Assembly (NCBI GenBank): GCA_048270185.1
Contig: JBLWTJ010000004.1
Location: forward strand, 100,605-164,604
Origin: Bacteriovoracaceae bacterium
GTDB taxonomy: Bacteria > Bdellovibrionota > Bacteriovoracia > Bacteriovoracales > Bacteriovoracaceae
Length of the DNA: 64,000 nucleotides
Direction: 5' to 3'
Positions within the stretch are counted from its first letter, which is position 1. Each line of letters opens with the position of its first letter. The notes beneath the pieces were generated by a model. That model did no database searches and had not been told where the DNA came from. It worked only from the letters and a program-made list of their open reading frames with translations. The translations under genes and the position numbers were made by a program. Of this stretch, positions 2 to 15,804 are shown piece by piece.

Positions 2-3000
2 ATTAATTAATGCTTGAATATTTTGACGATCTGGTGCAGTTGGGCTCAGTGTCAAATATCTTTGAAATTTATCAATCGCCAAATTAGGCTGACCAAGTTC
101 TTTATATAGAAATCCCATCATCTTATTAAGCTCTGGATCCGTTGAATTGAGCTGATTAGCGCGCTGAAAGAACTGTAGAGACGGAACAAACTCACGCGTC
201 TGAAAAGTCAATTTACCCATCGAGAAAATAGCATCAAAATAGCGTTTATTGATCTGTATTGCCTTAGAGAGATTTGTCTTAGCTTCATTTACTTTCTTCG
301 CACGTAAATAAATTTCTCCTAAAATATAATAACCATACTCTGAACTAGGATGGAGTTTAATTTCAGCTTGGGCCATCTTCTCAGCTTCTTTGAAATTCCC
401 CTGTTGGAAGAAGATCTTCGAACGGTAATAATTAATACGAGGATAAGTCGGAAGCCTCTCTTCGAGAATATTGATATGTTTAACGGCCGCATTGAAGTTT
501 TTAAGGTGAATATAAGTGATGATTAACTTCTCACGTACAAGAAGGTTTCCAGGCTCGTAAACGAGAAGTTTAATAGCGTTCTCGACTAATTCTTTATAAT
601 TTCTTTCAATCTCAGATACTTCAACTAAGTATGAATAAAGAGCACCATCTTTCTTGTTAAGGCGATCAAGTACTTCCTTCATCTCGCGGTAAGCTTCAAA
701 ATTTTGATCTCGATAATAAAATACTGCAATCTGCCCATAGAGTTTTGGATTTTCTTTATGCTCTAATAATTCTTTTCTAAGATATCCTATGGCAGTTGAA
801 ACACCATCTGTTTCATAGAGAACCTTACTATTTAGAATTTTATAATCAATATTTGACGGATTTAAATTAATCGCATCATTTAAAAAGATCTTAGTTTGCT
901 TAAGTTTCTTATTCTTAAATGCAATCTGGGCCATTTCATAGAATGGGATATCACTTAGAGGATTAACTCTAGCTGCTGCTTTAAACTTATCAAAGGCCAT
1001 TTTATCATTAGAAATTAGACGATAGTAAAGTCCTAGTAGCATATGGAATTCATAGGTCTCACGAAACACTTCACTGGTAGAAAGTGCAGATAAAAGTCTT
1101 TTCGCTTCATCTTTTTTAAATGACTTTATATTTGCATTAATTAGAGCGTAGTTTACACGTGGATTTACAGGATGAAGTGCTCTAAGTTTTGTTAAAGTCT
1201 TAATGGCAAAGTCAAAGTACCCTCTTTTTACTTGAAGCTCTGAAAGGTAGAGCTTGGCATCGATACTTGTTTCATCTAAAGAAACCGCCCTTAAAGCGAG
1301 CTCGAATGCGCGATCCCAATTAAGAAGCGCTACTTCTTCTTTTGATTGCCTAATAAGGACTTTAATTTTACTTGTTGAAATAACCTTTTGAGTTAGATCA
1401 CTACCGGCAACATCTAAGGTCGCTAGAGTATCTCTTAAAGACTCATCATCATAAATCTTCAAAGATTGTTGGAATAACTTCGTGGCACCTTGAATATCTT
1501 TTTCATAGGCTTTGATGAATCCCATAAATTTGAGACCTTGAGAGAATACGTAAGGTGAACCACCTCCATATTTGGCCACTAAAATAGATGCAACCTTCTT
1601 CAATAGATCCATCTTCTCTAGTTCTAATAATAATTCGCCGTAAACAATCATGAATCGGAAATCATTTTGAAACTTTGATTTATTCTCATTGATTAAACTA
1701 AGTGCATCAGCACTTCTTTCGTTTAGAAGTAAATACTCAACCATAGCATCAATTGACTCAACTGATCGAAGCTTTGTTTGATTTAATTTTTCATAAACTA
1801 TTTTAGCTTTTTCTAATTCACCAGCTTTTAATAAGAATTTCAAGTAAACGGAAAAAAGCTTTATTGAGGGTTTATTTGATTTTAAATAATTATATCTCTC
1901 AATTGTGAAGATTGCTGTTTGATACTTTCTAAAATATCCATAAAACTGAGCTGCACCAATAACAACATCAATATCTGAAAGTAGTTTACTTTGCTCAATT
2001 CGAAGAAGTTTAGAGATAACCTGACCGGCCTTGTAGCGGTCTTGAGTATCAATTAGTAAATCACTGTAGACATGGATTAATTTATTAACGGCCGGGTTTC
2101 CAGAAAATTTATATTGTAGAGACTGATAAAACTTACCAGCAGCTGCAACTCTACCAGCATAGGTATCGAGTTGGAAGAGCTTAAGACCTTCAGCATAGGC
2201 AACTTGGGCCTTCTGGGGTGCCGCAATTTCAGTAGCAACGGGAAATTCAATTTTCGGTACTAGGACTGTTTCAATTTCTTTCTTTTCTTCAGGTAGTAAG
2301 AAAATTATAGCAACAACTAAAAAGAGAGCTATCGTTAAGTTTCTTTTTTTATTTTGTGCTACTTTCTTAGGCTTCTTTAACTTCTCAACTTTCTTAGGTT
2401 TCTTCTTAAGACTTCTTTCCTGCTGTCTAATAGCGACCTCTAAATCAGAATAGTCCTCAATTTTAGAAGGCAGCTCTTCTTTTTTTAGATCGGCAAGGTT
2501 AAACAAGGCCGTAGCAGCATCTTCTTCAACAATCTCTTCAGCTATCTCTGGCTCTTTTTCTTCTTTCTTATCGCCATCTTCACTTTCTTCTTCATCCTCT
2601 TCATCAACACCAAGCTCTTGAGCTAAGTTATTAACGACGACGGTCTTTTCAATTTCATCTGTTTCAACTGGTTTCTTAAGATTTGAGACATTCACAACAA
2701 CTGTTTTCTCAACACCTGCTTCTTCCTCTTGCTCCTGCTCTAACTCTTTCTTTGCTTTAAACTTCTCCTGGATCTCATCGTAATCAATAGCAATGTCTTG
2801 ATCTTTAGAGAATTTAAATTCATTAAAGGCCGTCTTCTCTTCACCAATTAAAGTGTGATGTTTTTGCTCACTGTCCGTAACAGCATATTTAACTTCTTTC
2901 GTTTCTTCTTTTACTTTATCTTCAAAAGTTTCTTCTACCTTTGAGAACAATGTTTTTAGTTCTGGAATATTACTAATGGGTGCCCAATCTCCTGTTGGAA

Positions 3001-3118
3001 ATTTCTGAAAAAGACAGGCTTCATCTATAGCATTCTTCTGCCCTAGCTCGATTAATTCTGAAAATATAAAAGGGCCCAAAACCTTATTAGACTTGGTTTT
3101 GACACGAAACTTTATCAT
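2..3118 (-). CDS. Large membrane-anchored TPR protein with N-terminal GYF_2/DUF4339-like domain (3' end runs off the window)
   Basis: Absent from the ORF track because the stop lies outside the window. Segments translated by hand in one frame from the ATG at 3118: MIKFRVKTKSNKVLGPFIFSELIELGQKNAIDEACLFQKFPTGDWAPISNIPEL (GYF_2-like GPF..EL...W.P...IPEL), an acidic linker, a TM segment LTIALFLVVAIIFLL, helical TPR-like repeats, and ...PDRQNIQALIN at the window edge. Confidence 0.8.
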   Translation of the reverse strand, partial: MIKFRVKTKSNKVLGPFIFSELIELGQKNAIDEACLFQKFPTGDWAPISNIPELKTLFSKVEETFEDKVKEETKEVKYAVTDSEQKHHTLIGEEKTAFNEFKFSKDQDIAIDYDEIQEKFKAKKELEQEQEEEAGVEKTVVVNVSNLKKPVETDEIEKTVVVNNLAQELGVDEEDEEESEDGDKKEEKEPEIAEEIVEEDAATALFNLADLKKEELPSKIEDYSDLEVAIRQQERSLKKKPKKVEKLKKPKKVAQNKKRNLTIALFLVVAIIFLLPEEKKEIETVLVPKIEFPVATEIAAPQKAQVAYAEGLKLFQLDTYAGRVAAAGKFYQSLQYKFSGNPAVNKLIHVYSDLLIDTQDRYKAGQVISKLLRIEQSKLLSDIDVVIGAAQFYGYFRKYQTAIFTIERYNYLKSNKPSIKLFSVYLKFLLKAGELEKAKIVYEKLNQTKLRSVESIDAMVEYLLLNERSADALSLINENKSKFQNDFRFMIVYGELLLELEKMDLLKKVASILVAKYGGGSPYVFSQGLKFMGFIKAYEKDIQGATKLFQQSLKIYDDESLRDTLATLDVAGSDLTQKVISTSKIKVLIRQSKEEVALLNWDRAFELALRAVSLDETSIDAKLYLSELQVKRGYFDFAIKTLTKLRALHPVNPRVNYALINANIKSFKKDEAKRLLSALSTSEVFRETYEFHMLLGLYYRLISNDKMAFDKFKAAARVNPLSDIPFYEMAQIAFKNKKLKQTKIFLNDAINLNPSNIDYKILNSKVLYETDGVSTAIGYLRKELLEHKENPKLYGQIAVFYYRDQNFEAYREMKEVLDRLNKKDGALYSYLVEVSEIERNYKELVENAIKLLVYEPGNLLVREKLIITYIHLKNFNAAVKHINILEERLPTYPRINYYRSKIFFQQGNFKEAEKMAQAEIKLHPSSEYGYYILGEIYLRAKKVNEAKTNLSKAIQINKRYFDAIFSMGKLTFQTREFVPSLQFFQRANQLNSTDPELNKMMGFLYKELGQPNLAIDKFQRYLTLSPTAPDRQNIQALIN

Positions 3119-3164: not shown

Positions 3165-4139
3165 TTATGGAGCTTTTTGCACTTTGCCGAAAAGATTTTG
3201 ACGATAAGCGAGCGTAATAATCAACAATACCGCTGAAAGTAGTTGTAAATTAGTCAGATAACTCATGTGTAAGTAAACAACATGCCCGATTAGAAATAAA
3301 TAGAAGACATGGACAATACTCAATAACTTGGCAATCAATAATGAATGTTCACTTCGATATGAATAGATTAGTAAATATACGATTAAGAATAATTGATAAA
3401 AACTATCCATACCAAATACAGGTAAGAATATAATTGCACTGGCAAGACAAATCGGCATGAGTTGAATTGACTGATAACGGTAATCAATCTTATTGAATGA
3501 GAAAATAAGTTGTAAAATTAAAAACAGTAAGAAGAAATACGGCCCTAATTCAATATTTAAGTTCATGAGTCTCTGAAGAACAGAAAGACAAAAAATATAC
3601 TGAAGAATAGATAAGTATGGTGATGACTTTTCCTTAGGAGATAACAAAGTTGTTGTTAAAACCAGAAGCACTTCAAAGAATAAATTACCAAGTTCTTGGC
3701 CCTGAAATTCCTTAACAAAGAAATATATAACGGCAATAACAATCCATGAAATATTATAGAATAAACTGTGTTGGCTCTTCTTATCAGTGTCAAAGAAACA
3801 AAATACTCCTAGTAGTAAAATGATATCAGTGACTCCGGTGAAATTCCAAATATTAAAAAGAGAAAACCAAAGTAGTGTAAAAGCTTTAAATAGGGACCTG
3901 AGATTACCTCCACTATTTAAAAAATAAAGGGAAAAGGCTACAGAGCATACAGCAAAGTAGCTTCGATCAATTGAAGAGAAAATAAAGTCTTCGTATAGAA
4001 CATAAAATGTCGTTAGAAATGTAAATGCAAGAACCGAGTTTACTTGCTTTCGATTTAACTTTGAAACCTTACCAATTACCTGATCGACAAAGTACATAAG
4101 AGGATAAAGCATTAGAAGGTAGTAGAAGTTAAGCTGCAT
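3165..4139 (-). CDS. Polytopic membrane protein, putative highly diverged NuoN-like paralog
   Basis: Intact ORF, almost entirely hydrophobic. GGAGG RBS before the ATG at 4139 (track start 4145). Seventh gene of the cassette mirroring nuoA-H-J-K-L-M-N; the NuoN assignment is positional only. Confidence 0.6.
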   Translation of the reverse strand: MQLNFYYLLMLYPLMYFVDQVIGKVSKLNRKQVNSVLAFTFLTTFYVLYEDFIFSSIDRSYFAVCSVAFSLYFLNSGGNLRSLFKAFTLLWFSLFNIWNFTGVTDIILLLGVFCFFDTDKKSQHSLFYNISWIVIAVIYFFVKEFQGQELGNLFFEVLLVLTTTLLSPKEKSSPYLSILQYIFCLSVLQRLMNLNIELGPYFFLLFLILQLIFSFNKIDYRYQSIQLMPICLASAIIFLPVFGMDSFYQLFLIVYLLIYSYRSEHSLLIAKLLSIVHVFYLFLIGHVVYLHMSYLTNLQLLSAVLLIITLAYRQNLFGKVQKAP

Positions 4140-4968
4140 GAACAACCTCCACTTTCTTAGTGCTCAATAACGAATAGGCCGTCAGAAGCACTATTAATGG
4201 TAGTAGTGTTGCTTGTCCTGTAAAAAAAGAAACAGACAGAACAATTGTAAACATAACTATATTCGAGACTAAAACAAAGAATGACGAGTCAGAATAAAGA
4301 GTTATTAACTCGGCCAGCCCTAGTAAACACAAGCAAGTTAATGTAACGGCTACAGAAGAGTTTGGATTTAGAACAAGAACCGCAAAACTAAGAATATTCA
4401 AAGAGCTTACTAAATTCTGTTTAAAATATAGATATATAAGCAATAACGCGACAAAAGGGATAATGATTTGTAATGAATAATCAAAAGTTGCTGAAAAATT
4501 GATAAGGGAAATATACTTTATTAAGAAGAGAGTGAGAAAAATACTATTCTTCTTTGATAAAGAAATCATAACAAATGAAGTCATCACAATAATAAAATAA
4601 ATTAGTTCAACATTTTCTTTAAATACAAGGAGTGCTATTAGATTTAATGCAACAAATCCTAAAAACTTAATATTATTTAGTTTCGCAATTGAAAAGAAGG
4701 ATACTGCAAAAATTAAATATGAAGGTATATTTTGTGAGGCAAACGCCAAGAGTATAAGTGGGATTGAAAAAATTAAATCTATATTCGATTGCTTTCTTGT
4801 TACAAACAAAGCCAACAAAGAACCTACAACACTAATTATATCAAACTTAAAGCTCAATGCTAATTGTGTAAAAGGTGTATAAAAGATTCGATCACTGATA
4901 AAAAATAAACCAATAAAACATGTAATAAAAGTTACAAGATATATTATGGCCTCACGACGTAATTTCAT
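4129..4968 (-). CDS. Polytopic membrane protein, putative highly diverged NuoM-like paralog
   Basis: 279-aa hydrophobic ORF overlapping both neighbours. Sixth gene of the cassette; the assignment is positional only. Confidence 0.6.
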   Translation of the reverse strand: MKLRREAIIYLVTFITCFIGLFFISDRIFYTPFTQLALSFKFDIISVVGSLLALFVTRKQSNIDLIFSIPLILLAFASQNIPSYLIFAVSFFSIAKLNNIKFLGFVALNLIALLVFKENVELIYFIIVMTSFVMISLSKKNSIFLTLFLIKYISLINFSATFDYSLQIIIPFVALLLIYLYFKQNLVSSLNILSFAVLVLNPNSSVAVTLTCLCLLGLAELITLYSDSSFFVLVSNIVMFTIVLSVSFFTGQATLLPLIVLLTAYSLLSTKKVEVVHAA

Positions 4969-6254
4969 GCCACCACCTTAAATATAATAACCAAAAAGTA
5001 GATTGCAATAACGATGAGACTAAACGCTCTAATCGTACGATATGAAAGAGAAAACATTGGTACTGCTATCGTACTCGAGCCAGAAGTCTCTTGCCTAGAA
5101 CTAATTGGATAAGAACTAAATATCGTCTCTAAATAGCTAACTCTCTTTTGATTTCCTAGGTTTAATTTTGTTGATAACCCAATTAGCAACTGATCAAAAT
5201 TGAATACAAGTCCAATATAAATAAGAGCAATCAGTAAATATGTTAAAAGAGAATATCCTACTGAACTATTATCAACTTCAAATAAAAAAGTAGAAAAGTA
5301 GAATAAACCAACACCAACAAATGATTTGAGTAGTAGACTATAAAGTAGCTCATACCATTGAAGATTAATCTTCTTCTCCACTAATGAATCGAATTCTAAA
5401 AGCAGAATTAGAAACCCCGCAATTGTTGAAAATATAATTAAAGCAATATTCTGAACTGAGTAAGATAAAGTAAATAGTCCCAGTAGAGCAATATTAGAAA
5501 ATAATGAAACCGGTAAGTACTTTCTTAATATATCAACTTCTCTATTCATTAATTCTATTGATTTAATAAAGGATTTTGTAAAATAGTAAAAGGCGATATA
5601 GGCCATTAACATATTCTCGAGATTCAAGAGAACACAAACAAGAGAAGTTAAGAGAAATACCAGCTTGAAAATGTTCTTCTTATTAACAATGAGAAAAGAC
5701 AATAGAAACACTAAAAAGATAAGGAATACATTTAATGTTTGTGAAATATGTTGAATATCAGTCGTAAGAAGAAGTGAAAGAATAAGCCCATCAACAATAG
5801 CAAATTCTTCATTTGTAGAAACTAAAGTTGAAAAAATTAAATAAGCACAGAATAAATATTTAAATGAAGCTGTTTTATCAACAAGTGTTAGAAATGCGAT
5901 TATTGCAATTTTAAGAATAGGAAGAGTTCGATCTTTTATTCCATTGAAGTTAAAAAAGATACAACTGCTGAATCCAATAATCTTTAAGTTTTGCTCTATT
6001 GGTAATAATAAAATACCGTATGGCAGTAGCTCTACAATCGTACGTTTTGACTGTTCTAATATAATAAAAGAAAAAATAAACGGAAGGATTAAGTTAATAA
6101 ACCCTATTTCGATATTAGCAAGGTAAAAGCTCCCATTTAGCAATAATGGAAATAAAGCGATAAACAGTCGCGTCCAATTATTTAACTTATCTTTGTAATG
6201 AAATAATACAAGTGTCGCAAAAAATAATAGAGTTAAAATAACTTGTACTATCAT
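4965..6254 (-). CDS. Polytopic membrane protein, putative highly diverged NuoL-like paralog
   Basis: 429 aa, the largest ORF of the cassette. The C-terminus has FNFDQLL (cf. NuoL YFMDDLY), a ~55-aa polar/amphipathic stretch and a single terminal TM, matching the NuoL lateral-helix architecture. Confidence 0.65.
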   Translation of the reverse strand: MIVQVILTLLFFATLVLFHYKDKLNNWTRLFIALFPLLLNGSFYLANIEIGFINLILPFIFSFIILEQSKRTIVELLPYGILLLPIEQNLKIIGFSSCIFFNFNGIKDRTLPILKIAIIAFLTLVDKTASFKYLFCAYLIFSTLVSTNEEFAIVDGLILSLLLTTDIQHISQTLNVFLIFLVFLLSFLIVNKKNIFKLVFLLTSLVCVLLNLENMLMAYIAFYYFTKSFIKSIELMNREVDILRKYLPVSLFSNIALLGLFTLSYSVQNIALIIFSTIAGFLILLLEFDSLVEKKINLQWYELLYSLLLKSFVGVGLFYFSTFLFEVDNSSVGYSLLTYLLIALIYIGLVFNFDQLLIGLSTKLNLGNQKRVSYLETIFSSYPISSRQETSGSSTIAVPMFSLSYRTIRAFSLIVIAIYFLVIIFKVVA

Positions 6255-6511
6255 TTTAGCCCCTGTCTAACACGAAATTCTTTATAAATTGAATTAATCA
6301 TTAATAAAATTGGTGCCACATATATAATTAACATAACTCCATCATTTAATGAGATTGATTCCTGTACTCTTAAATCAATCAAAAGTAGAAGAATAGTTAC
6401 TACAGTAAATAATGAAAATATCTTCTTTGAAAATCTTGTCGTAAAAAGATAAACACCAAGATTAATAACAAATAATGTTGAAAGTAATGTAAATGTGTCG
6501 ATATTATGCAT
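6251..6511 (-). CDS. Small 3-TM protein, diverged NuoK-like paralog
   Basis: NIDTFTLLSTLFVINLGVYLFTTR / LNDGVMLIIYV...KEFRVRQ align by eye with this window's NuoK (TLSSYLLVSFFLFLAGIAVMVARK / NIDGNIMSLFI...RFFQVKD). The ATG at 6511 is better spaced from the AAGGGG RBS than the track start at 6517. Confidence 0.65.
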   Translation of the reverse strand: MHNIDTFTLLSTLFVINLGVYLFTTRFSKKIFSLFTVVTILLLLIDLRVQESISLNDGVMLIIYVAPILLMINSIYKEFRVRQGLK

Positions 6512-6950
6512 TCTCATCCCCTTCTAAGTTTACAAGTGAGATGAATGCTAGAAAGATTAAAATTACACTAAACTTAAGTACGACGGCCATATCAACATAC
6601 GTATCAACATTGAAGTTCGTAACCAAATCAATCAAACCATTCTTTGATTTTAAGTGATAAATATCTATCGACAGTACTCCAACTGTTATCATCGTAAACA
6701 ATATATAAGGGATATAACTAAATCTCTTATAACTCACTTCTGTCGTAGGGTAACAATATTCAATGATACTAAGTAAGAATATAATGATTAAGAGAAATGT
6801 AATTAAGAAATAAAGTAGAACAATTGAAGAGAATCCAAACATACTAAGTAGTAAACCAACAATCGCAACAGGATACAGAATCATTGTATATTTCTTACGA
6901 GCAAATGCTGCCAAAATGAATAGAGTTATAATGATTAAATTAAAAAACAC
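6504..6950 (-). CDS. Membrane protein, diverged NuoJ-like paralog
   Basis: 148 aa with ~5 TM. The C-terminal YVDMAVVLKFSVILIFLAFISLV resembles NuoJ HVLAFEISSILLLGALVGAAVI. Confidence 0.65.
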   Translation of the reverse strand: MFFNLIIITLFILAAFARKKYTMILYPVAIVGLLLSMFGFSSIVLLYFLITFLLIIIFLLSIIEYCYPTTEVSYKRFSYIPYILFTMITVGVLSIDIYHLKSKNGLIDLVTNFNVDTYVDMAVVLKFSVILIFLAFISLVNLEGDENA

Positions 6951-7776
6951 TACTAACCTTTAATATGCACATAATTATTATAACGAGCAAACTAAAGACA
7001 GCTCTTCTCTTAGAGTTCTTAGTTATCGTTGTATAATCTCTTAATGGTTGAAACTTAATATATATATTACTTAAAACTATCAATATCGTTTGAATAAAGA
7101 ATACAAAAGCTGATATTGAAAAAAGAAATAGTACGCTGGTATTAAACTTGTCTTTAAATACGACAGCAAGATCACTACGAACAAATGTTAAAGCTAAAAA
7201 GAAAAGTACTAATAAGCTTTGAAATAATAATCTAATATAAGAGCACTGAATCTTAACGTAACTTTTATCTGTGTATTGACTACCAGTTCTAATCATCTCA
7301 AGTTCTGTTGCATAGAACAAAAGAAGAAGAGGTAGTTCAAATGCTAGTCTTATTAAAAATGAATTAGTCTGTAGTAACTTATATGTTAATACCATTGCTG
7401 TAATAATTATGAGCTGACAAATAGTTATTTGAGCTTGCTCAAGAACTTCGTGTCTTATTATAGATAAACGAAATCTGAAGACACCTAAGAACACTACAGA
7501 TATTAAAACTATTGAAAACAAGGCCAATAGAAAACTTATCTCATTTGTAATAATAAAATTGATCGATAAAATCTGACCTAAAATTAGGAAGAAGATTAAT
7601 GTAATGAAAGAGTTGAAACTTAAAGCATCAACAGAACTAACACCATTAGATGCTAATAAGTATTTCTTTAAACTTAAAACAGGTGCAAACTCTTTCGCAT
7701 TAACGAATGAGCCAATTAGTTGAATAAGAATGAACCACAGTGGAAGTGCTAAAATGAGCTCCAAAACATGCCTCAA
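6940..7776 (-). CDS. Membrane protein, diverged NuoH-like paralog
   Basis: DALSFN / EISFLLALFSIVLISVVFLG / QAQITICQL correspond in order to NuoH DRFMFN / NIGVFYLLGVSSLVGVGIFLG / ASQIISYEV. Confidence 0.65.
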   Translation of the reverse strand: MRHVLELILALPLWFILIQLIGSFVNAKEFAPVLSLKKYLLASNGVSSVDALSFNSFITLIFFLILGQILSINFIITNEISFLLALFSIVLISVVFLGVFRFRLSIIRHEVLEQAQITICQLIIITAMVLTYKLLQTNSFLIRLAFELPLLLLFYATELEMIRTGSQYTDKSYVKIQCSYIRLLFQSLLVLFFLALTFVRSDLAVVFKDKFNTSVLFLFSISAFVFFIQTILIVLSNIYIKFQPLRDYTTITKNSKRRAVFSLLVIIIMCILKVSSVF

Positions 7777-8076
7777 TTACAAAATTAGTATTAGTAAAAT
7801 TGTAACAAAGCCTGCCAGTATTGAATACGCTTCTTTATAAAAATCTAAGGTTCCTGTACCAACAATTATGACCGTCATCATTGAGATAACAGAGAAGACA
7901 ATGACAAGTTTGAAAATACCTCTAATAGATTTAAGGTCATTCTTAACTAGTTTACTTTCATTATGGATCTTCTTAAATGGAGATAGAACAATTTTGGGTT
8001 TAAAAAATAAGGGGTAGCCTAAAACTACCCCTAGTATTAATGAAATGATAATTGAAGTCAGTAGTACTAATTCCAT
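7777..8076 (-). CDS. Small 3-TM protein, diverged NuoA-like paralog
   Basis: 99 aa with TM1 - loop (KPKIVLSPF, cf. NuoA RP...KLTPYECG) - TM2 - TM3. Starts 1 bp after the nuoN stop. Confidence 0.65.
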   Translation of the reverse strand: MELVLLTSIIISLILGVVLGYPLFFKPKIVLSPFKKIHNESKLVKNDLKSIRGIFKLVIVFSVISMMTVIIVGTGTLDFYKEAYSILAGFVTILLILIL

Positions 8077-8077
8077 A

Positions 8078-9553
8078 CTACTTAATTAAGAGCAGAGCTC
8101 CGTTAGCTGCAGTTAATAACTTCTGCCAGAAGATACCAAGAACAATTACTGGCACAGTGTATGCAGCGATGATTAACTGATTAACAAAACCAAAACCAGA
8201 GATCTTCTCATCAGACTCAGAGTCTTTAAACACCATTACTCTTACAACTTTCATGTAGTAGTAAAGTGAGATTACTGAGTTAAGAGCAGTAATAACTGCT
8301 AACACATAGTATTTCTTATCAATGATTGCCGCTAGAATATTAAATTTAGCAACAAATCCCGCAAGCGGTGGAAGACCGGCCAAAGAGAACATTGTGATTG
8401 CCATTGTAATCGCCATTGCAGGGTGTTTTTTAATTAGTCCAGCAAAGCGATCGATATGATCATTACCGTAGTGATCTTGAACAAATGAAGCAACATAGAA
8501 AGCGACAAGAGTCATGAAAAGGTATGTTACAGCATAGAAAAGAATTGCAGTTGTACCACTTTGTCCAAGAACAATTGCACCTAACATCATAACACCTGCG
8601 TGAGAGATACCAGAGAAAGCAAGCATTCTCTTAATTGATCTTTGACCAATTGCTGAAACGTTACCGACAGTCATTGTAAGTGCTGCAACAAACATTAGAA
8701 GAACGATCCATGAGTGTTTAAGAGCACCAACATCGCCACCAAAGAAGACCTGAGTAATTCTTGCAAAAGCAACAATCCCAGCAAACTTCGGAACAAGTGA
8801 GAAGAAAGCTGTTACAGGTAGTGGTGAACCTTCATAAACATCTGGTGACCACATATGAAATGGTACACATGCTATCTTATATCCAATACCTACGAAAAAC
8901 AGTAGGAATGAAGGGATTAGAATTGCTGTTTGTTCAGTTGAAAGCTTCGCCATAAGAGGAATCATTTCAGAGAAGTTAATCGTCCCTATTGTTCCAAAAA
9001 TGTGACTCATACCAAAAAGCATCATCCCGGCAGTAACACCACCGTAAAGAGCATACTTAAGACCAGCTTCAGTTGATCTCTCATCGTTCTTCTTAAGAGC
9101 TGCCATAGCGTATGACAGAATAGAAAGAGTTTCGATACCGATATAGAAGATCAGCATGTTGTTAGCAGAAGCTAGTAACATACCACCAACTAAGATACCA
9201 AGAGCAAGAATACTAAATTCTGCTTTTGTTCCTTCGTATAGATCTTTAGAAACCTTTGATAAGTAGATCGCACCGGCAGTACTTAAAATCATTACAATTT
9301 TAGCAAAACCTGAGAAATGATCCATTACTACTGATTTAGTAAAGATATGCGTCGCTTCTACACCTAGGCCCTTAACTTGATAAATCAGAGCACATAGGAG
9401 TCCAAGCATTGCACCCCAGTATAACATTCCCTTCGAGCTACCCTTCTCATCATTTCCGTAAGTAGCTTCGATGAGGATTAGAGCCCCCATCGTGAAGCAT
9501 ACTAAAAGCTCCGGAATATAATGTGCGATACTCGCTAAATAATTTAAAGCCAT
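8078..9553 (-). CDS. nuoN: NADH-quinone oxidoreductase subunit N
   Basis: Motifs EAGLKY, GIGYKIACVPFHMWSPDVYEGSP, IKRMLAFSGISHAG, SLAGLPPLAGFVAKF. Confidence 0.96.
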   Translation of the reverse strand: MALNYLASIAHYIPELLVCFTMGALILIEATYGNDEKGSSKGMLYWGAMLGLLCALIYQVKGLGVEATHIFTKSVVMDHFSGFAKIVMILSTAGAIYLSKVSKDLYEGTKAEFSILALGILVGGMLLASANNMLIFYIGIETLSILSYAMAALKKNDERSTEAGLKYALYGGVTAGMMLFGMSHIFGTIGTINFSEMIPLMAKLSTEQTAILIPSFLLFFVGIGYKIACVPFHMWSPDVYEGSPLPVTAFFSLVPKFAGIVAFARITQVFFGGDVGALKHSWIVLLMFVAALTMTVGNVSAIGQRSIKRMLAFSGISHAGVMMLGAIVLGQSGTTAILFYAVTYLFMTLVAFYVASFVQDHYGNDHIDRFAGLIKKHPAMAITMAITMFSLAGLPPLAGFVAKFNILAAIIDKKYYVLAVITALNSVISLYYYMKVVRVMVFKDSESDEKISGFGFVNQLIIAAYTVPVIVLGIFWQKLLTAANGALLLIK

Positions 9554-9568
9554 CTCTTCACCTATTGA

Positions 9569-11101
9569 CTAGAAAGTCGCTAATAATGAAACTAGTTGTC
9601 CTACAGAAGCCTTCATCATGTCTAGTAATGGAGTTGGGTAAATACCAAACACGATTACGGCCACACATAGTGGGAGCATGTAGAAGATTTCTCTAGCATT
9701 CATATCTGTATATGATTTGTTTTCTTCAATAACTTCACCAAAGAACATTCTCTTGAACATCCATAGTAGGTAAGCAGCACCAAGAAGAAGACCAATAACT
9801 GCAAGTACAGTAATTGTTGTAAATCTGTTGTAGATCCCTAGGAAAATTAGAGCTTCTGAGATGAAACCTGAAAGACCTGGAAGACCCATTGATGCAAACA
9901 TCGCGATAATGAAAACAATCGAGTACTTTGGAAGTTGTGTATAAAGACCACCAAAACCTTTTGTTCCATCTGGTCTGATAATCCATCTGTGGTGTGATCT
10001 TTCATAAAGAATACCAATAAGAAGGAACATCATTGCAGTTGAAGTACCGTGGTTGAACATCTGAAGAACAGCACCGTTCATACCTTGTACAGTCATTGCA
10101 GCAAGACCTAGCATTACAAACCCCATGTGAGATACAGAAGAGTATGCAACTAACTTTTTAACGTCTGTTTGTGCCATTGCACAGAATGCACCGTAAATTA
10201 CGTTAATTAAACCTAACCATGCGATTGCGTCAGCAAAGTAAACTGAAGCTGATGGGAAGATTGGGAATGCAATTCTTAGGAAACCATAAGTACCCATCTT
10301 AAGTAGTACACCGGCAAGGATAACTGAGATCGCTGTTGGTGCCTGAACGTGTGCGTGTGGTAGCCATGTGTGGAATGGAAATACCGGAACTTTAATTGCG
10401 AAACCGATGAAAAGTGCTACGAAGAATACTTTTGCAAATGGAAGCGCCATTCCGAATAAGTTAACTGTTTCGTTTACAAACTTACCACCTGAAAGTGCTA
10501 AGATATTGAATGAGTCAACTCCTTGACCAGTTACGAAGTATAGAGCAACCATACCAACTAGCATTAGGATTGAACCAAAGAAAGTATATAAGAAGAATTT
10601 AACAGCTGCGTATTCTCTGTTTTCACCACCCCAAATACCAATTAGGAAGAACATTGGGATTAGCATTACTTCCCAGTAAACATAGAAAAGGAAGAAGTCT
10701 AATGAAAGAAAAACACCAAATACAGTCGACTGAAGCATTAGTAGTAATGCGAAGTAACCTTTAACTTGCTTTTTTACTGTCCATGAAGAAAGAATACAGA
10801 TTGCAAAAAGCAGTGAAGTTAAAAGGACCATTGGTAATGAAATACCGTCAATACCTAAGTGGTAGAAGATATTAAATTGTGAAATCCAAGCTTTCTTAAT
10901 AGTAAACATTTCCTGCATACCTGGGACAGAAGTGTCGAATTTTAAGTATAGACACCCTGTTAAAACCATAGTGATCACAGTATTGATTAATGACCATACT
11001 CTGATCGCAGTTTCTTTGGCCTTAGGTAGTAAAAGTACCCCAAGAACACCAATCATAGGCATCCACAGAATCCAACTTAATAGATTAGAATGTGCGCTCA
11101 C
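9569..11101 (-). CDS. nuoM: NADH-quinone oxidoreductase subunit M
   Basis: Motifs LGIDGISL, WEVMLIPMFFLIGIWGG, FAIKVPVFPFHTWLPHAHVQAPT, KKLVAYSSVSHMG. GTG start with an AAGGAG RBS. Confidence 0.97.
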   Translation of the reverse strand: MSAHSNLLSWILWMPMIGVLGVLLLPKAKETAIRVWSLINTVITMVLTGCLYLKFDTSVPGMQEMFTIKKAWISQFNIFYHLGIDGISLPMVLLTSLLFAICILSSWTVKKQVKGYFALLLMLQSTVFGVFLSLDFFLFYVYWEVMLIPMFFLIGIWGGENREYAAVKFFLYTFFGSILMLVGMVALYFVTGQGVDSFNILALSGGKFVNETVNLFGMALPFAKVFFVALFIGFAIKVPVFPFHTWLPHAHVQAPTAISVILAGVLLKMGTYGFLRIAFPIFPSASVYFADAIAWLGLINVIYGAFCAMAQTDVKKLVAYSSVSHMGFVMLGLAAMTVQGMNGAVLQMFNHGTSTAMMFLLIGILYERSHHRWIIRPDGTKGFGGLYTQLPKYSIVFIIAMFASMGLPGLSGFISEALIFLGIYNRFTTITVLAVIGLLLGAAYLLWMFKRMFFGEVIEENKSYTDMNAREIFYMLPLCVAVIVFGIYPTPLLDMMKASVGQLVSLLATF

Positions 11102-11119
11102 TGTAACTCCTTAATTCGC

Positions 11120-13303
11120 TTATAAAGCTAAAATATAACCTAATAGTACTAAAATAATCATAACAATATAGAACTGGATCTTACCGTTTTGGATCGTTCT
11201 TAAGATAACGTTAAAGAAACGTACACTTGCTCCAGTTCCATCAACCATAATTGTATCGACAAATAAATTATCGAACCAAGCTGATACTCTCATAACGAAC
11301 TTCGTTACACCGGCCCAACCATCGATTGCAAATCTGTCATAGACACCCATATCAAACTTAGCAAGAAGGTTGTTAAACGGTAGAAGTCCTTTTTGAATGA
11401 AACCTTTAATATAAAGATCATCCATAAAGTATTTATTTTGAAGAACTCTGTAGTAACGATTAAAAGCATTAACCCAGAACCCAGGATTCCATTTACCCCA
11501 TAGGTACATCATCATCGCAATGAATACACCAGAGAATGCAATCACAATCGACATACCAGCACCAATATAGTGAACTTGGTGTACATGGTGTGCTTCTTCT
11601 TCAGAAAGGCCATATGTTGAGTCATACTTTGACTTTGTGAAAGTACCTTTTTCACGAGCATCAATTTGCCCTAGTTCTTCACGTTTATAGTTTTCAAATT
11701 GACCTTTCTTTGGTTTTTGTACAAGAGTTTGGAACCACTCATACTTTCCATTAGTCTTATCAGCTACTTTTACGAAACCTTGACCAGTTAAAGATCCTGA
11801 GAACCATACACCAAGTGTAAAAACTGCAAGAATTAGAAGAGGTACGTTTCTGTTCCATGAAAGTTTTTCTTCATGACAGTGATCGTAAACTTCTTTATCT
11901 CTTGGCTTCCCGTGGAAAGCTAAGAACATCATACGACACATATAGAATGCAGTAAGAAGTGCACCAGCAAATCCAAGTACAGCTGGAGCAATCATAACTG
12001 GTGAGTGCATTGCTTCAATTAAGGCATCACCTAGAATTCTATCTTTAGATACGAATCCAGAGAAGAATGGGATACCAGCAATAGCAAGAGTACAACACCA
12101 CATTGCAAACCAAGTGAATTTCATTTTATGTCTAAGACCACCCATTCTTGGCATCTCTTGTACGTGAGCATGCGTGTGGTGATCATGTAATGAGTGAATA
12201 ACTGAACCTGCTGCTAGGAATAGACATGCCTTGAAAACAGCGTGTGTAATTAGGTGCATGAAAGCAGCATTATAAGATCCAACACCAATACCTAGAACCA
12301 TGTATCCTAGTTGAGAAATTGTTGAAAATGCTAGAACCGCTTTGAAGTCTGTTTGAACTAGAGCGATTGTTGCAGCACCGAAGGCAGTGATACCACCGAT
12401 ATAAGCAACAACTGTTAGAAGTCCACCAGCATCAAGTAGTGGGTAAATTCTTAGTGAAAGATAAACACCGGCCGCAACCATTGTTGCTGCGTGGATTAGG
12501 GCCGAACATGGAGTTGGACCATTCATGGCATCTGGTAGCCAAACGTTTAATGGGAACTGAGCTGATTTTCCAATTGTTCCCATGAAGATACAGAAACCAG
12601 CAAAAGTAGCTAGTGGAATACCAATAACAGCTTTACCTACTAAACCACCTGCATCGATTGCATTATAAAGATCAACGAAGCTTACAGAACCAACAACCGT
12701 CCAAAGAGCAACAATACCTAGTAAGAAGAAAACATCCCCTACTCTTGTTGTCATGAAGGCCTTAACGTTAGCTGCACCAGCAACTTCTTTCTCGTAGTAG
12801 TGACCAATTAGTGAGTATGAACAGAATCCCATGATCTCCCAGAAGATAAATACTGAAAGTAAGTTATCTGATAGTGCAAGACCAAGCATTGCTGAAGTAA
12901 AGAGTGACATATAAGTGAAGAAACGTCCGTTACGTCCGTAATTCATGTCATCTTTCATATAGTAAGTTGAGAAGATGTGGATCAGAGTAGCAACGGCCGT
13001 AACCATCATTACTAAGATTGCAGTCATGTTATCGATGTAAATACCCATCTTAACTGCGAACTCTTGACCTCCACCGTTTAGATCAAACCAAGTGAATACT
13101 TTGTGAATGTGATAATTAGCTGCATACGTCCCGAAAACGAAGTCGCTAAAAATTCTCCATGCATAAACTGTAGAACCTGCAATTGCCGCACAACTTAACG
13201 TTACCGCTGTTCTCGTAAAACGTGACGCGATAAATGCGTTAATAACGAAAGCAAAGAATGGCAGTAAAACAATTGGAGCAATACTTGATATCGTATAATC
13301 CAT
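11120..13303 (-). CDS. nuoL: NADH-quinone oxidoreductase subunit L
   Basis: Motifs FWEIMGFCSYSLIG, GKSAQFPLNVWLPDAMNGPTPCSALIHAATMV, STISQLGYM, THAVFKACLFL. Confidence 0.97.
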   Translation of the reverse strand: MDYTISSIAPIVLLPFFAFVINAFIASRFTRTAVTLSCAAIAGSTVYAWRIFSDFVFGTYAANYHIHKVFTWFDLNGGGQEFAVKMGIYIDNMTAILVMMVTAVATLIHIFSTYYMKDDMNYGRNGRFFTYMSLFTSAMLGLALSDNLLSVFIFWEIMGFCSYSLIGHYYEKEVAGAANVKAFMTTRVGDVFFLLGIVALWTVVGSVSFVDLYNAIDAGGLVGKAVIGIPLATFAGFCIFMGTIGKSAQFPLNVWLPDAMNGPTPCSALIHAATMVAAGVYLSLRIYPLLDAGGLLTVVAYIGGITAFGAATIALVQTDFKAVLAFSTISQLGYMVLGIGVGSYNAAFMHLITHAVFKACLFLAAGSVIHSLHDHHTHAHVQEMPRMGGLRHKMKFTWFAMWCCTLAIAGIPFFSGFVSKDRILGDALIEAMHSPVMIAPAVLGFAGALLTAFYMCRMMFLAFHGKPRDKEVYDHCHEEKLSWNRNVPLLILAVFTLGVWFSGSLTGQGFVKVADKTNGKYEWFQTLVQKPKKGQFENYKREELGQIDAREKGTFTKSKYDSTYGLSEEEAHHVHQVHYIGAGMSIVIAFSGVFIAMMMYLWGKWNPGFWVNAFNRYYRVLQNKYFMDDLYIKGFIQKGLLPFNNLLAKFDMGVYDRFAIDGWAGVTKFVMRVSAWFDNLFVDTIMVDGTGASVRFFNVILRTIQNGKIQFYIVMIILVLLGYILAL

Positions 13304-13325
13304 TTTCTTTCCTTATATAATTAAA

Positions 13326-13631
13326 TTAACTCTGTAATTCAGTTGCATCATCAATGTGAATCGAATCTTTAACTTGAAAGAATCTAATCACAATGGCTAA
13401 ACCTACGGCCGCTTCAGCTGCGGCAATAATAATAATGAATAGTGACATAATATTTCCGTCAATATTCTGATTAACAAATCTTGTATAAGCAGCAAAGTTT
13501 AGAGCTGCTGCGTTTAAGATAAGTTCAACCCCTAAAAGGATCGCAATAATATTTTTTCTCGCCACCATAACTGCAATACCAGCTAGGAATAAGAAGAAAG
13601 ATACTAAAAGGTAAGAAGATAAAGTGATCAT
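13326..13631 (-). CDS. nuoK: NADH-quinone oxidoreductase subunit K
   Basis: Motifs GVELILNAA and AAAEAAVGLAI. Confidence 0.97.
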   Translation of the reverse strand: MITLSSYLLVSFFLFLAGIAVMVARKNIIAILLGVELILNAAALNFAAYTRFVNQNIDGNIMSLFIIIIAAAEAAVGLAIVIRFFQVKDSIHIDDATELQS

Positions 13632-14161
13632 TTATTTATTCTCCTTGGTCTAGAAATTACGGCTGCACCAACAAGTGCTCCAAGAAGAAGAATCGAAGAG
13701 ATCTCAAATGCAAGAACATGGTCAGTAATTAGCTTCACACCAATTTCCTCTATCGTCGATTGCATATCTTCTAATTGTACGTGTTTTTGAATTTTTAAGA
13801 TTGGAGCGAGAAGCTTCATTAGAATAAAACTCATAATCAGCATCATGATCGCTGCGATTGTATAAGTTTTTGTTGTTCCCATCGCTGCAACTTTCTTAAT
13901 ACCAAACTTGTTATAAGCTTGCTCGATTCCACCAGTTAACATGATGGCAAAAAGCATTAGGATAACAACACCACCAGCGTAAACAACTAATTGAGCTGCC
14001 GCTAAGAAGTCTGCACCTAAAGTTGCATATAAACCGGCCACTCCAAAAAGAGTAAGTAGCAGATAAATACATGAGTGCATTAAGTTTTTCGACACAGCTA
14101 CTAGGAATGCTCCTATAACTGTTGCCGCTGCTGAAAGTAAAAACATTGTGTTAATAAACAT
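13628..14161 (-). CDS. nuoJ: NADH-quinone oxidoreductase subunit J
   Basis: Motifs QLVVYAGGVVILMLFAIML and AFEISSILLLGALVGA. Confidence 0.96.
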   Translation of the reverse strand: MFINTMFLLSAAATVIGAFLVAVSKNLMHSCIYLLLTLFGVAGLYATLGADFLAAAQLVVYAGGVVILMLFAIMLTGGIEQAYNKFGIKKVAAMGTTKTYTIAAIMMLIMSFILMKLLAPILKIQKHVQLEDMQSTIEEIGVKLITDHVLAFEISSILLLGALVGAAVISRPRRINK

Positions 14162-14179
14162 TTCAAATATCCTTAAAGA

Positions 14180-15388
14180 TTAGTGTCCGCCCGCACCTGC
14201 AGAAGCATGTGCGATAACATTTCCTAGTACTGACCAAATTGACTTAGTATCAAATACGTAAAGCCATACAGCACATCCAATTAAATTAAATAGTGCAATA
14301 GGAGTTAAGTACTTCCAACAAAGAACCATTAATGAGTCAACTCTCATTCTTGGAAGTGTCCACCTAATCCAAATAACTACATAATAAAGAAGTAGTGTCT
14401 TTGTAAGGAAAGATCCTAATTGTAGGAAGTTTCCAATTTGTTTTCCAATCATAGGGTGAGCAGATGGAATTAGCTTTGTAACAAATTCACCTGTTCCAAG
14501 TCCGAAAGGAACTTGATATCCACCTAGGAATAAAGCAGCACAAACACCACAAACAACAAATACTTCAATATATTCTGCAAGAGCGAAGAAACCAAACTTC
14601 ATTCCTGTATATTCTGTGTGGTAACCAGAAACTAGTTCCGACTCAGCTTCAGGAAGGTCAAATGGTGCTCTGTTTGTTTCAGCAAGTGCTCCAATAAATA
14701 GAACGAAGAAACCAATGAAAGCAAATGGGTTGTGAAGAACAAACCACTGGTGAGGTAGACCACCTTGAGCTTCTGTAATTGTTTTAAATGAAAGAGAACC
14801 CGTCATGATTACAATTGCAAGAATTGATAATGTTACAGGAACTTCATAAGAGATAATCTGAGATGCACCCCTCATACCACCAAGCATTGACCACTTAGAG
14901 TTTGAAGCATAACCACCTAGGAAAATTCCTACACCTACTAATGATGAAACACCTAGTAAGTAGAAAACACCAATATTAAGGTGAGTAAGAGTAAATCCAC
15001 TTGAGAAAGGTACGACAGCAATTGACATGAACACACCACCAAGCGCTAAGAAAGGCGCAAGGTTAAACATGAATCTGTCCGCTTGTCTTGGTACAACGTC
15101 TTCCTTAAGAATCATCTTCACACCATCAGCTAGGAATTGAAGAAGTCCATAAGGTCCAACTCTGTTTGGTCCCTGTCTCATCTGTAGGTCGGCAGATATT
15201 TTTCTTTCTGCGTACGTACCTAAACCACCAACTGCAGAAAGAGCACCAATGATGATTAATGAGAAAACTAAGAAGATTAAAAAAGTAACGATACCTGTTG
15301 CATCAGTGCCTAATAAATTCGACAGTGCATCCACTGCCATTGAAAAGCCTGGTGCTTGTGATAAATACGATACAATCGTTGAGTTCAT
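14180..15388 (-). CDS. nuoH: NADH-quinone oxidoreductase subunit H
   Basis: Motifs ERKISADLQMRQGPNRVGPYGLLQFLADGVK, AETNRAPFDLPEAESELVSGYHTEY, WIRWTLPRMRVD. Confidence 0.98.
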   Translation of the reverse strand: MNSTIVSYLSQAPGFSMAVDALSNLLGTDATGIVTFLIFLVFSLIIIGALSAVGGLGTYAERKISADLQMRQGPNRVGPYGLLQFLADGVKMILKEDVVPRQADRFMFNLAPFLALGGVFMSIAVVPFSSGFTLTHLNIGVFYLLGVSSLVGVGIFLGGYASNSKWSMLGGMRGASQIISYEVPVTLSILAIVIMTGSLSFKTITEAQGGLPHQWFVLHNPFAFIGFFVLFIGALAETNRAPFDLPEAESELVSGYHTEYTGMKFGFFALAEYIEVFVVCGVCAALFLGGYQVPFGLGTGEFVTKLIPSAHPMIGKQIGNFLQLGSFLTKTLLLYYVVIWIRWTLPRMRVDSLMVLCWKYLTPIALFNLIGCAVWLYVFDTKSIWSVLGNVIAHASAGAGGH

Positions 15389-15804
15389 TATTTATCCTTT
15401 CCATTTGTATTTGGTTGGAAACTTTTAACCCAATCAAGGTCACCTTTTTTCCAGCAATAAACTAAACCTAAACTAAGAATGATGATGAACATTAGAAGTG
15501 ATCCAAGAACTGCACCACCCTGTCCCATTTCGACAAATCTTCTGTAAACACTTGCCACAGGGAACATTAAAGCACCTTCAACATCAAAGATTAAAAATAC
15601 AAGAGCAATAACGTAGAAACGTACGTTAAAGTTAGACCATGCTGTACCAGTTGGCTCTTCACCACACTCGTAAGGAGTGAGTTTAAGTTCAGTTGGATTA
15701 TTTGGTCTAATAAAACTACCAATAAATAACGTACCAACAAAAGCAACCGCTGCTACAACCAATAAAATTAATACCGGCATATAGACGTCAAAGTTTTGCG
15801 ACAT
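15388..15804 (-). CDS. nuoA: NADH-quinone oxidoreductase subunit A
   Basis: Motifs KLTPYECGEEP, FYVIALVFLIFDVE, WKKGDLDW. Confidence 0.98.
   Translation of the reverse strand: MSQNFDVYMPVLILLVVAAVAFVGTLFIGSFIRPNNPTELKLTPYECGEEPTGTAWSNFNVRFYVIALVFLIFDVEGALMFPVASVYRRFVEMGQGGAVLGSLLMFIIILSLGLVYCWKKGDLDWVKSFQPNTNGKDK

Follow-up and report, generated by a model that had tools for sequence, protein, structure and literature searches.

A window of 64,000 nucleotides (nt) from the genome of a Bacteriovoracaceae bacterium (assembly GCA_048270185.1, contig JBLWTJ010000004.1; genome G000 below) carries the genes nuoA-H-J-K-L-M-N, encoding the membrane arm of complex I (NDH-1), and, directly behind them on the same strand, seven open reading frames (ORFs), o1 to o7, that encode short and very hydrophobic proteins. 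A preliminary description, made from the sequence alone, proposed that these ORFs are seven extremely diverged copies of the nuo membrane genes, kept open and possibly encoding a pseudo-complex that does not pump. Here, we describe a comparative analysis of this locus and its counterparts in the genus and family. We present evidence that o1 to o7, together with an unlinked nuoCD-like gene, are probably the selected remains of a second complex I that is still intact in some related genera.

Results

Seven hydrophobic ORFs adjoin the membrane-arm genes of complex I

The nuo operon is preceded by mfd on the opposite strand, and its last gene, nuoN, ends with a TAG codon at 8080-8078. The ATG of o1 (8076-8074) follows after a spacer of 1 nt, and the seven ORFs then adjoin or overlap one another by 4-17 nt down to position 3165, where a gap of 46 nt separates them from a gene for a GYF_2/TPR protein (Table 1). 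The layout first described, with seven abutting or overlapping ORFs that begin 1 nt past the nuoN stop, is therefore correct for 3165-8076 of the minus strand. Two start sites differ: o2 probably begins at the ATG used in congeners, giving a true length of 274 amino acids (aa), and o7 probably begins two codons in, at the ATG at 4139, giving 324 aa.

The o1-o7 products have grand average of hydropathy (GRAVY) values of 0.8-1.3, and the G+C content of the ORFs is 26-34% versus 35-42% in nuoL-N, in agreement with the AT-rich drift noted earlier. Crude counts of transmembrane (TM) segments are 3/8/4/3 for o1-o4 versus 3/7/5/3 for NuoA/H/J/K. The sizes of the ORFs echo those of A-H-J-K-L-M-N, as had been claimed: in a count made by hand on the ORF sizes, and after the fact, the two rank orders differ by one adjacent swap (Spearman 0.96), a fit matched by 7 of 5040 orderings. 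In length, o5 has 429 aa, compared with 727 aa in the upstream NuoL and 626-675 aa in the NuoL proteins of recognisable second sets elsewhere, and o5-o7 reach 59-66% of the length of the corresponding upstream subunits.

None of o2-o7 matches a Pfam or NCBIfam family at E<=1, and o1 has chance-level matches only, so standard annotation would indeed miss all seven. The ORFs fail membership of PF00507, PF00146, PF00499, PF00420 and PF00361, whereas recognisable second sets in other genomes do match these families; the canonical set in the window is the only recognisable membrane set of the genome. The short motifs by which the ORFs had been likened to their neighbours fared less well. None of the eight occurs exactly in the neighbouring canonical protein, and the nearest versions differ at 1-4 positions, several of them not colinear. 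The motifs behind the NuoL-like call for o5 (FDQL and others) are thus not evidence, and o5 is placed by its position. QYTD of o2 is likewise inexact, but it falls on the 'H-x-E-Y-S/T' stretch of NuoH in the significant profile alignment presented below.

Table 1. Features of the locus and of related loci. Locations without a prefix are positions in the window; the others carry a contig or locus label.
Feature	Location	Strand	Description
o1	7777-8076	minus	99 aa, 3 predicted TM; positional counterpart of second-set NuoA
o2	6940-7776	minus	278 aa, 8 predicted TM; NuoH-derived
o3	6504-6950	minus	148 aa, 4 predicted TM; positional counterpart of NuoJ, by position and size only
o4	6251-6517	minus	88 aa, 3 predicted TM; positional counterpart of NuoK
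o5	4965-6254	minus	429 aa; positional counterpart of NuoL, by position only
o6	4129-4968	minus	279 aa; positional counterpart of NuoM, by position only
o7	3165-4145	minus	326 aa; positional counterpart of NuoN, by position only
nuoA-H-J-K-L-M-N of the working complex I	8078-15804	minus	nuoA 15388-15804, nuoN 8078-9553
GYF_2/TPR protein gene	2-3118	minus	Pfam; runs off the window; last gene of the locus, behind nuoN or the second set, in the loci examined from the family
Terminator-like hairpin	8010-8032	minus	codons 15-26 of o1, 44 nt past its start; 10 pairs, 5 of them G-C, then a T-run
8-bp hairpin	8060-8082	minus	encloses the nuoN stop and the o1 start
NuoCD relic gene	C1:680572-682086 (G000)		intact ORF, 505 aa
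Cys-rich predicted lipoprotein gene	C1:682105-683565 (G000; L144:6106-7566)	minus	directly upstream of the NuoCD relic gene
PilZ+GYF_2 protein gene	L144:7673-9259	minus	beside the lipoprotein and NuoCD relic genes
Working B-C-D-I cluster	C3 about 199.9-202.7 kb (G000; L145:3868-6664)		
NuoB-like relic, G006-type	L136:10261-10671		four N2-site cysteines kept
NuoB-like relic, G041	L137:10148-10672		all four cysteines lost
Third kind of gene set, G063	L120 (G063:C6:35000-54999)		complete standard nuoB...N operon, lipoprotein gene, NuoCD-like ORF

The slot behind nuoN holds a graded series of second nuo sets

Among 5.8 billion clusters the only homologues of o5 found carry Halobacteriovorax names, which suggests that the source organism is a Halobacteriovorax, a marine predator; the family, by the source names of homologues, is the Bacteriovoracaceae. 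The neighbourhood of nuoN was compared in one genome from each of 31 other genera of this family. Five genera (G046, G045, G056, G067 and G020) hold a recognisable second nuoAHJKLMN set between nuoN and the TPR gene. The second set of G046 encodes, in the order A-H-J-K-L-M-N, proteins of 121, 349, 172, 98, 675, 493 and 460 aa, which are 26%, 36%, 31%, 31%, 43%, 37% and 25% identical to the subunits encoded in the window. One genus (G052) is intermediate, with only the H-, K- and N-like genes recognisable and J marginal. Twelve genera carry seven unrecognisable hydrophobic ORFs of intermediate size (in G041, 113, 329, 156, 81, 493, 316 and 356 aa), the lengths and hydrophobicity of which are conserved across the twelve. 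The block is reduced or cut by a contig end in three genera, and in the other ten the slot is empty, with the TPR gene lying 7-172 bp after nuoN.

Thus, o1-o7 share the slot, the gene number, the gene order and the size ranks of the sets in G046, G045, G056, G067, G020 and G052. Relatives with two better-conserved tandem arms, for which the preliminary description had proposed a search, do exist. Furthermore, when all proteins are compared with one another by phmmer, those of the second sets connect to canonical ones only within their class (position 1 with NuoA, 2 with NuoH, 3 with NuoJ, 4 with NuoK, and 5-7 with L/M/N), cross-links being confined to the paralogous L/M/N classes. The second-set NuoL-like gene of G020 is split into ORFs of 343, 133 and 179 aa in a 66%-complete genome (L086, G020:C8), reflecting either early decay or an assembly error.

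Sequence homology of o2 to NuoH

A hidden Markov model (HMM) of o2, built from 12 genus members, matches the NuoH-like second-set proteins of G046 (E 2e-5) and G052 (E 3e-4; Z=1e4), and its next five matches are position-2 proteins. In hhalign comparisons, the o2 family aligns with second-set NuoH at 95.1% (E 3.3e-8, 145 colinear columns), the remaining 48 cells of the 7x7 control matrix being at 3.5% or less; it reaches 84.8% with standard-type NuoH and 6.4% with the upstream type. Iterated searches from the NuoH-like second-set proteins recruit only position-2 proteins, from G041, G050, G055, G066, G062 and one Halobacteriovorax subclade. Iteration also ties the position-3 protein of G041 to the NuoJ-like group and the position-7 protein of G016 to the NuoN-like group.

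The proposal that a profile search would assign each ORF to its nuo family therefore held for o2, and the other six gave no significant link. All eight of the best non-member matches of the NuoA-like second-set HMM are position-1 proteins, six of them from Halobacteriovorax (best E 0.045), and the best cell of the o1 row in hhalign is NuoA, at 3.5%; this is weak evidence, of rank only. Similarly, five of the eight best non-member matches of the NuoK-like HMM are position-4 proteins, a rank enrichment only, and the best cell of the o3 row is NuoJ, at a non-significant 1.8-2.0%. The A-, J- and K-like calls thus agree with position and size, and for o1 and o4 with rank enrichment, but not with any significant profile match, and the M- and N-like calls still follow from position, as was said of them originally. 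Enlarging the o7 family from 1.84 billion representative proteins (10 found, all from the same family) gave 1.8% against the NuoN-like second-set proteins. Searches with phmmer or HMMs from the canonical Nuo proteins, also when iterated, recruit no protein of the degenerate sets, and hhalign of seven-row alignments with canonical and second-set profiles yields at most 1.3%. Whole-sequence HMM scores across classes are confounded by target length.

The reach of these methods can be gauged within the genus. Between its two subclades, in which the loci are syntenic beyond doubt, hhalign gives 2.9% for o3, 18% for o5 and 0.2% for o6. Since syntenic orthologues of congeners fail this comparison, the missing Nuo signal in these ORFs says little. 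Position within the series can reveal homology that escapes profile methods even among members of one genus, and it is from this series that we infer the homology of the six ORFs other than o2. A predicted complex of o3 and o4 scored 0.31 against a mark of 0.32, with controls at 0.00, and speaks neither for nor against binding. The best match of o5 in the ESM Atlas is a cluster automatically named NADH:quinone oxidoreductase/Mrp subunit, at 0.80, a value that a third of shuffled proteins reach.

The ORFs diverge rapidly under purifying selection

In Halobacteriovorax, 11 genomes have a contig that spans the locus, and each of them carries the seven ORFs intact and colinear; a congener contig ending after the second ORF and an incomplete genome without a nuoN match were left out of this count. 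Orthologues of o1 are present in 12 genomes of the genus. Five congeners have o1-o7 in unchanged order, flanked by nuoN and the TPR gene, with protein identities of 36-79%, whereas their NuoN and NuoM proteins are 88-96% and their TPR proteins 77% identical. The same block, with near-equal lengths, is found in G006, G005, G001, G003 and G007 at 23-33% identity. Despite this divergence, the 77 orthologous ORFs of the 11 congeners contain no stop or frameshift. The relic genes evolve several times faster than the working complex I set.

Ratios of nonsynonymous to synonymous substitution (dN/dS), estimated by the NG86 method for close species pairs, were 0.03-0.19 for o1, 0.04-0.08 for o2, 0.01-0.04 for o3, 0.02-0.05 for o4, 0.05-0.12 for o5, 0.07-0.11 for o6 and 0.02-0.04 for o7. 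The same pairs gave 0.02-0.05 for the TPR gene and 0.00-0.05 for nuoL/M/N. Plain decay, which frameshifted orthologues and ratios near 1 would have indicated, is excluded by values well below 1 in all seven ORFs, which do not qualify as pseudogenes. In the same genome pairs, dS is 2-10 times lower in nuoL/M/N (0.05-0.42; window 8078-13303) than in the relic and TPR genes (0.16-2.3). Strong codon-usage constraint or recombination in the nuo genes could account for this difference, which would also fit unequal expression.

Loss of the coupling residues

Residues were checked at columns that are invariant in 21-22 canonical sequences. The set that we take to underlie coupling comprises the two Glu of NuoK, the Asp/Glu of NuoA, the carboxylates of the NuoH loop, and the TM5 Glu and TM7/TM12 Lys of L/M/N. 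Of these, both NuoK Glu, the NuoA Asp/Glu pair, and the TM5 Glu and TM7/TM12 Lys of L/M/N are present in the second sets of G046 and G045, which also retain 24-25 of the 30 invariant charged positions of NuoH. That of G056 keeps part of the coupling residues, and in G052 seven of the 30 charged NuoH positions are left and both NuoK Glu are lost. None of the seven proteins has a charged residue that is invariant across Halobacteriovorax, and the NuoH loop 'PFDL-EAE' is deleted in the o2 alignment, which bears out the reported absence of coupling motifs. In o4, TM2 ends in an acidic residue, Asp or Glu, in 11 of 11 genus members.

Parallel erosion of the peripheral arm leaves a NuoCD relic

Genomes with an intact second membrane set also encode a second NuoD (330-378 bits), which in this family is fused as NuoCD. 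Surveyed in 111 genomes of the family, the score of this second NuoD or NuoCD is 350-366 bits in G046, G045 and G067 and 281 in G052; it then falls through 268, 263, 261, 244, 216, 204 and 193 to 169 in G041, and reaches 72-64 bits in three Halobacteriovorax of one subclade, 16-24 in the clade of the window and 16 in G004. The peripheral genes thus decay in parallel with the membrane set. The peripheral locus reads nuoB-CD-E-F-G-I in G046 and B-CD-I in G056, G052, G021 and G015. G041 has a B-like gene whose product lacks all four cluster cysteines, CD, and an I-like ferredoxin gene, and G006 has a B-like gene with the cysteines kept, CD at 69 bits, and an ORF of 104 aa. G004 has CD alone, as does G000.

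The NuoCD relic of G000 has sub-threshold Pfam matches to the 30-kDa and 49-kDa subunit families in the right order (21.3 and 23.6 bits) and matches the NuoCD of G046 in tblastn (E 6e-10). It is intact in all seven congeners examined, with dN/dS of 0.08-0.10 between close ones. The NuoD motifs that we take to form the quinone site are not kept in the relic alignment. Of a Q- and N-module (B, C, D, I, E, F, G) belonging to the relic set, only this NuoCD is left in the genome. The proposed second membrane arm is thus probably not a duplication confined to that arm, but the membrane half of a whole second complex I with its own peripheral genes.

The working enzyme has separate genes. G000 encodes a single NuoB, a single NuoI, a recognisable NuoC and one standard NuoD, all in a B-C-D-I cluster on contig C3, and no match to NuoF was found in the genome (95.9% complete). 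One membrane set, a B-C-D-I cluster and no NuoF point to a working enzyme of the 11-subunit kind. The Pfam match of its NuoD is divided into two segments, 1-171 and 197-271, suggestive of an insertion.

Several further observations concern the peripheral loci. The NuoB-like relic of the G006 type keeps four N2-site cysteines despite a NuoCD at 69 bits, while that of G041 has lost all four although its NuoCD scores higher, at 167 bits; the order of decay therefore differs between lineages. The gene directly upstream of the NuoCD relic encodes a Cys-rich predicted lipoprotein with a lipobox and eight further invariant Cys, belonging to no Pfam family; in G046, whose cluster is intact, this gene precedes nuoB. 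The lipoprotein is 31% identical between G000 and G046, and thus far better conserved than the relics. The lipoprotein was considered as a partner of the NuoCD relic and rejected, being present in 93 of 111 family genomes, including four without the relic, and absent from four with it. GYF_2 proteins flank both relic loci, a PilZ+GYF_2 protein beside the lipoprotein and NuoCD genes and the GYF_2+TPR protein after o7, which may be coincidence. Finally, the slot between nuoN and the TPR gene is empty in G063, and a different contig of this genome carries a complete standard nuoB...N operon, behind which lie the lipoprotein gene and a NuoCD-like ORF of 543 aa (181 bits). As many as three kinds of complex I gene set thus occur in the family.

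The two sets are an old pair

The preliminary description took the ORFs for copies of the adjacent canonical genes. The second-set NuoH of G046 is, however, 45-53% identical to the NuoH type present in 110 of 121 sampled genomes of the phylum and only 36-41% identical to the type in the window. The best matches in the PDB also differ: for window-type NuoH, cyanobacterial and chloroplast NdhA (255 bits, with bacterial and mitochondrial NuoH at about 204-216), and for second-set NuoH, mitochondrial and bacterial NuoH (233-221 bits). In an unrooted maximum-likelihood tree of NuoH, the window type forms one clade (SH-aLRT 100) on a long stem and the tandem second sets of the family form another (100). 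The degenerate o2 proteins were excluded from this tree; a neighbour-joining tree including them was dominated by long branches and was not used.

Several other families carry both NuoH types on one contig, 7.4-11 kb apart. By Pfam annotation, G166 has a full tandem A-H-J-K-L-M-N pair and G027 and G112 have near-tandem pairs, whereas G155 and G040 have a single set adjoining mfd; within the family of the window, G063 has the standard type as a full operon elsewhere. The o2 profile is nearer to the second-set and standard types (95% and 85%) than to the upstream type (6%), so the relic is no recent copy of its neighbour. The relic set and its neighbour are ancient paralogues that are arranged in tandem in several families of the phylum, and standard NuoH is nearer to the relic lineage than to the upstream set.

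A hairpin within the first relic gene

A terminator-like hairpin lies within o1. In a strict scan, which covered the initial 150 nt of all genes in all sets, such a hairpin was found in the first gene of 12 of 12 Halobacteriovorax sets, 3 of 14 other degenerate or reduced sets and 0 of 6 intact or intermediate sets, and in none of 178 other gene starts. Looser hairpins with U-runs occur in G041 and G015. In G003 and G007 letters of the o1 stem are changed on both sides and the hairpin is kept; no Rfam family covers the region. Additionally, minimum free energy folds of the window and its five closest congeners contain the 8-bp hairpin at the nuoN-o1 junction (Table 1).

It is an even bet whether the o1 hairpin is the terminator of the working nuo operon doubling as an attenuator. 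Ribosomes reinitiating on o1, 1 nt past the nuoN stop, would melt the hairpin and so allow RNA polymerase to read through; the relic would then be made at a low level, by read-through behind the working operon.

Discussion

We propose that o1-o7 and the NuoCD relic are what is left, under selection, of a second complex I, which some related genera still have intact; to this reading we give a probability of about 0.8. The central idea of the preliminary description, a diverged but open second membrane arm, is in this respect upheld by the slot series, the o2-NuoH link and the dN/dS values. The ancestor would have possessed a complete second complex I, with A-H-J-K-L-M-N at this locus and its own B-CD-E-F-G-I genes. 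On the path toward Halobacteriovorax, the NADH module (NuoE, F and G) would have been lost first, followed by NuoB and NuoI, both Fe-S subunits, and, along with them, the charged residues of the membrane subunits that serve in coupling. The end state, as in G000, would be eight relic proteins: the seven shortened membrane proteins and a 505-aa NuoCD whose gene lies on a different contig. Such a relic, which has neither an FMN or Fe-S subunit nor conserved charges in the membrane, presumably cannot move electrons, and it very probably cannot pump; the absence of quinone-site motifs and invariant charges and the shortened L/M/N counterparts, along with the missing cofactor subunits, make both redox chemistry and pumping very unlikely. 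Selection on eight genes at two loci, in turn, argues for a retained, sequence-tolerant role. That the relic is a catalytically dead membrane scaffold in the shape of complex I seems to us about as probable as not. A fuller version, in which an eight-protein, cofactor-free pseudo-complex I still assembles, performs a non-bioenergetic job as a scaffold or partner of the working enzyme, and has its dosage set through a translation-sensitive terminator, is offered tentatively, at somewhat less than even odds.

A number of points weigh against this proposal. Significant sequence similarity connects just o2 and the NuoCD relic to complex I; o3, o5, o6 and o7 show none in hhalign, and o1 and o4 show rank enrichment only. 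Even the o2 signal stems from the G006-type subclade (96%), the clade of the window alone giving 0.1% against NuoH and being joined to that subclade at only 76.6% (E 2e-5, 233 columns). AlphaFold2 models of o5 and o2 were unusable (pLDDT 48 and 47); they were made from seven-row alignments limited to Halobacteriovorax in order to avoid circularity. dS is saturated in the more distant pairs, so that close pairs alone give usable dN/dS. Across the genus just 0-4 residues per protein are invariant, none of them charged, which fits a scaffold and equally fits very weak constraint. The putative terminator directly upstream would argue for low expression of the relic. Finally, the set is absent from ten genera that keep the upstream operon; it is dispensable there, and its role is not universal.

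The last of these points also bears on whether the seven proteins are instead accessory or assembly subunits of the working complex I upstream. A mere 1 nt separates their genes from nuoN, which is on the same strand, and any expression would therefore come by read-through from the nuo transcript, and the locus is fixed beside the upstream set in every genome that has it. Yet the upstream set occurs without these genes in ten genera, the ancestral proteins belonged to a complete complex equipped with B-CD-E-F-G-I genes of its own, and the unlinked NuoCD relic survives with them; we regard this explanation as unlikely. It is a little harder to credit that the relic still translocates ions as an Mrp-like cation/proton antiporter or leak channel, with changed residues and without redox input. 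Purifying selection, the acidic residue of o4 and the existence of redox-free relatives of the membrane arm such as Mrp would all suit such a function. Membrane-only nuoAHJKLMN operons of marine actinomycetes have been proposed as pumps (PMC6676996). Erosion of the chain of Lys and Glu residues, however, already shows in the intermediate genus, Halobacteriovorax has no invariant charged residue in these proteins, no PF00361 signal is left, and o5-o7 are probably too short for a 14-helix antiporter fold.

The lack of invariant functional residues could also mean that the cluster is dying and serves no protein function, its frames being open through recent decay or a need to avoid polarity downstream. 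The shrinking sizes along the series, the outright loss of the block in ten genera, a G+C content below that of the neighbours and the terminator-like hairpin upstream are all compatible with such a fate. Against it stand dN/dS values of 0.01-0.19 in all seven ORFs and a similarly constrained, unlinked NuoCD relic, open frames at 23-33% identity, and lengths and hydrophobicity kept in 12 further genera; selection against polarity, moreover, would not constrain amino-acid changes. We therefore hold a dying cluster to be very unlikely. An unrelated membrane system, such as a permease or a glycan-export cluster, that has seven genes of similar sizes by chance would explain why o2-o7 have no family match and six of the seven no profile link, but such gaps are to be expected where genus orthologues of o3, o5 and o6 are themselves beyond detection by hhalign. 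This possibility is extremely small given the o2-NuoH link and a slot that holds recognisable nuo sets in five genera and a half-recognisable one in G052.

The proposed remains of a second complex I resemble the membrane arm of NDH-1 in gene number, order, size ranks and positional orthology, in the homology of o2 to NuoH, in the TM counts of o1-o4 and in the co-survival of NuoCD. They differ from it in lacking Pfam recognition, the coupling residues, full-length L/M/N proteins and a NuoB, I, E, F or G of their own, and hence any electron path. Mrp antiporters are encoded by operons of seven membrane-protein genes and are evolutionarily related to the complex I membrane arm. Like them, o1-o7 are seven membrane-protein genes in one operon; unlike them, the present genes descend from a nuo set, their sizes do not fit MrpA-G, and no Pfam or NCBIfam match to the MrpA/D antiporter-like domains or to MrpE/F/G is found in o1-o7. 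The relic shares with pseudoenzymes the loss of catalytic residues and cofactor sites under continuing purifying selection, but here a whole eight-protein membrane complex would be involved instead of one protein, and the literature searched yielded no comparable case for complex I.

Extra nuoAHJKLMN operons of marine actinomycetes (Salinispora, Streptomyces and Kocuria) are treated as 'marine adaptation genes' in the passages seen of a Streptomyces paper that reviews them (PMC6676996). As portrayed there, these too are membrane-arm-only second sets beside a complete complex I in marine bacteria, but they consist of ordinary, annotatable nuo genes thought to pump protons, whereas those described here are degenerate and derive from a once-complete second complex. 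According to passages of a 2026 comparison of Peredibacter (PMC13147790), a nuoAHJKLMN cluster occupies a fixed chromosomal site in the Bdellovibrionota studied, and predatory strains have a further nuo cluster, which in Peredibacter is read as horizontally acquired; those passages describe no degenerate set or relic NuoCD. Intact tandem pairs were seen here in other families (G166, G027, G112 and G197). The portions consulted of a 2025 HMM survey of complex I class incomplete clusters as 'Nuo-Partial' and do not mention Bdellovibrio. In the literature as far as covered, which did not extend to supplementary files that may list such clusters, we found nothing relevant on a degenerate or pseudo complex I membrane arm.

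If the proposal is correct, the family preserves complex I at successive stages of a natural dismantling, with 14, 11, 8 and 0 subunits, and thus offers living intermediates: intact second enzymes, sets that have lost the NADH module, sets that have lost the Fe-S subunits and coupling residues, the selected eight-gene relic, and complete loss. Such a series would show the order in which modules and residues become dispensable and would supply natural 'mutants' for the coupling residues. Across the genus, seven 'hypothetical proteins' per genome and one NuoCD-like ORF would become annotatable. The relic would be a rare example of an entire multi-subunit machine that has become a pseudo-complex, and would bear on what the membrane scaffold of complex I, a very thoroughly studied energy converter, can do without redox chemistry.

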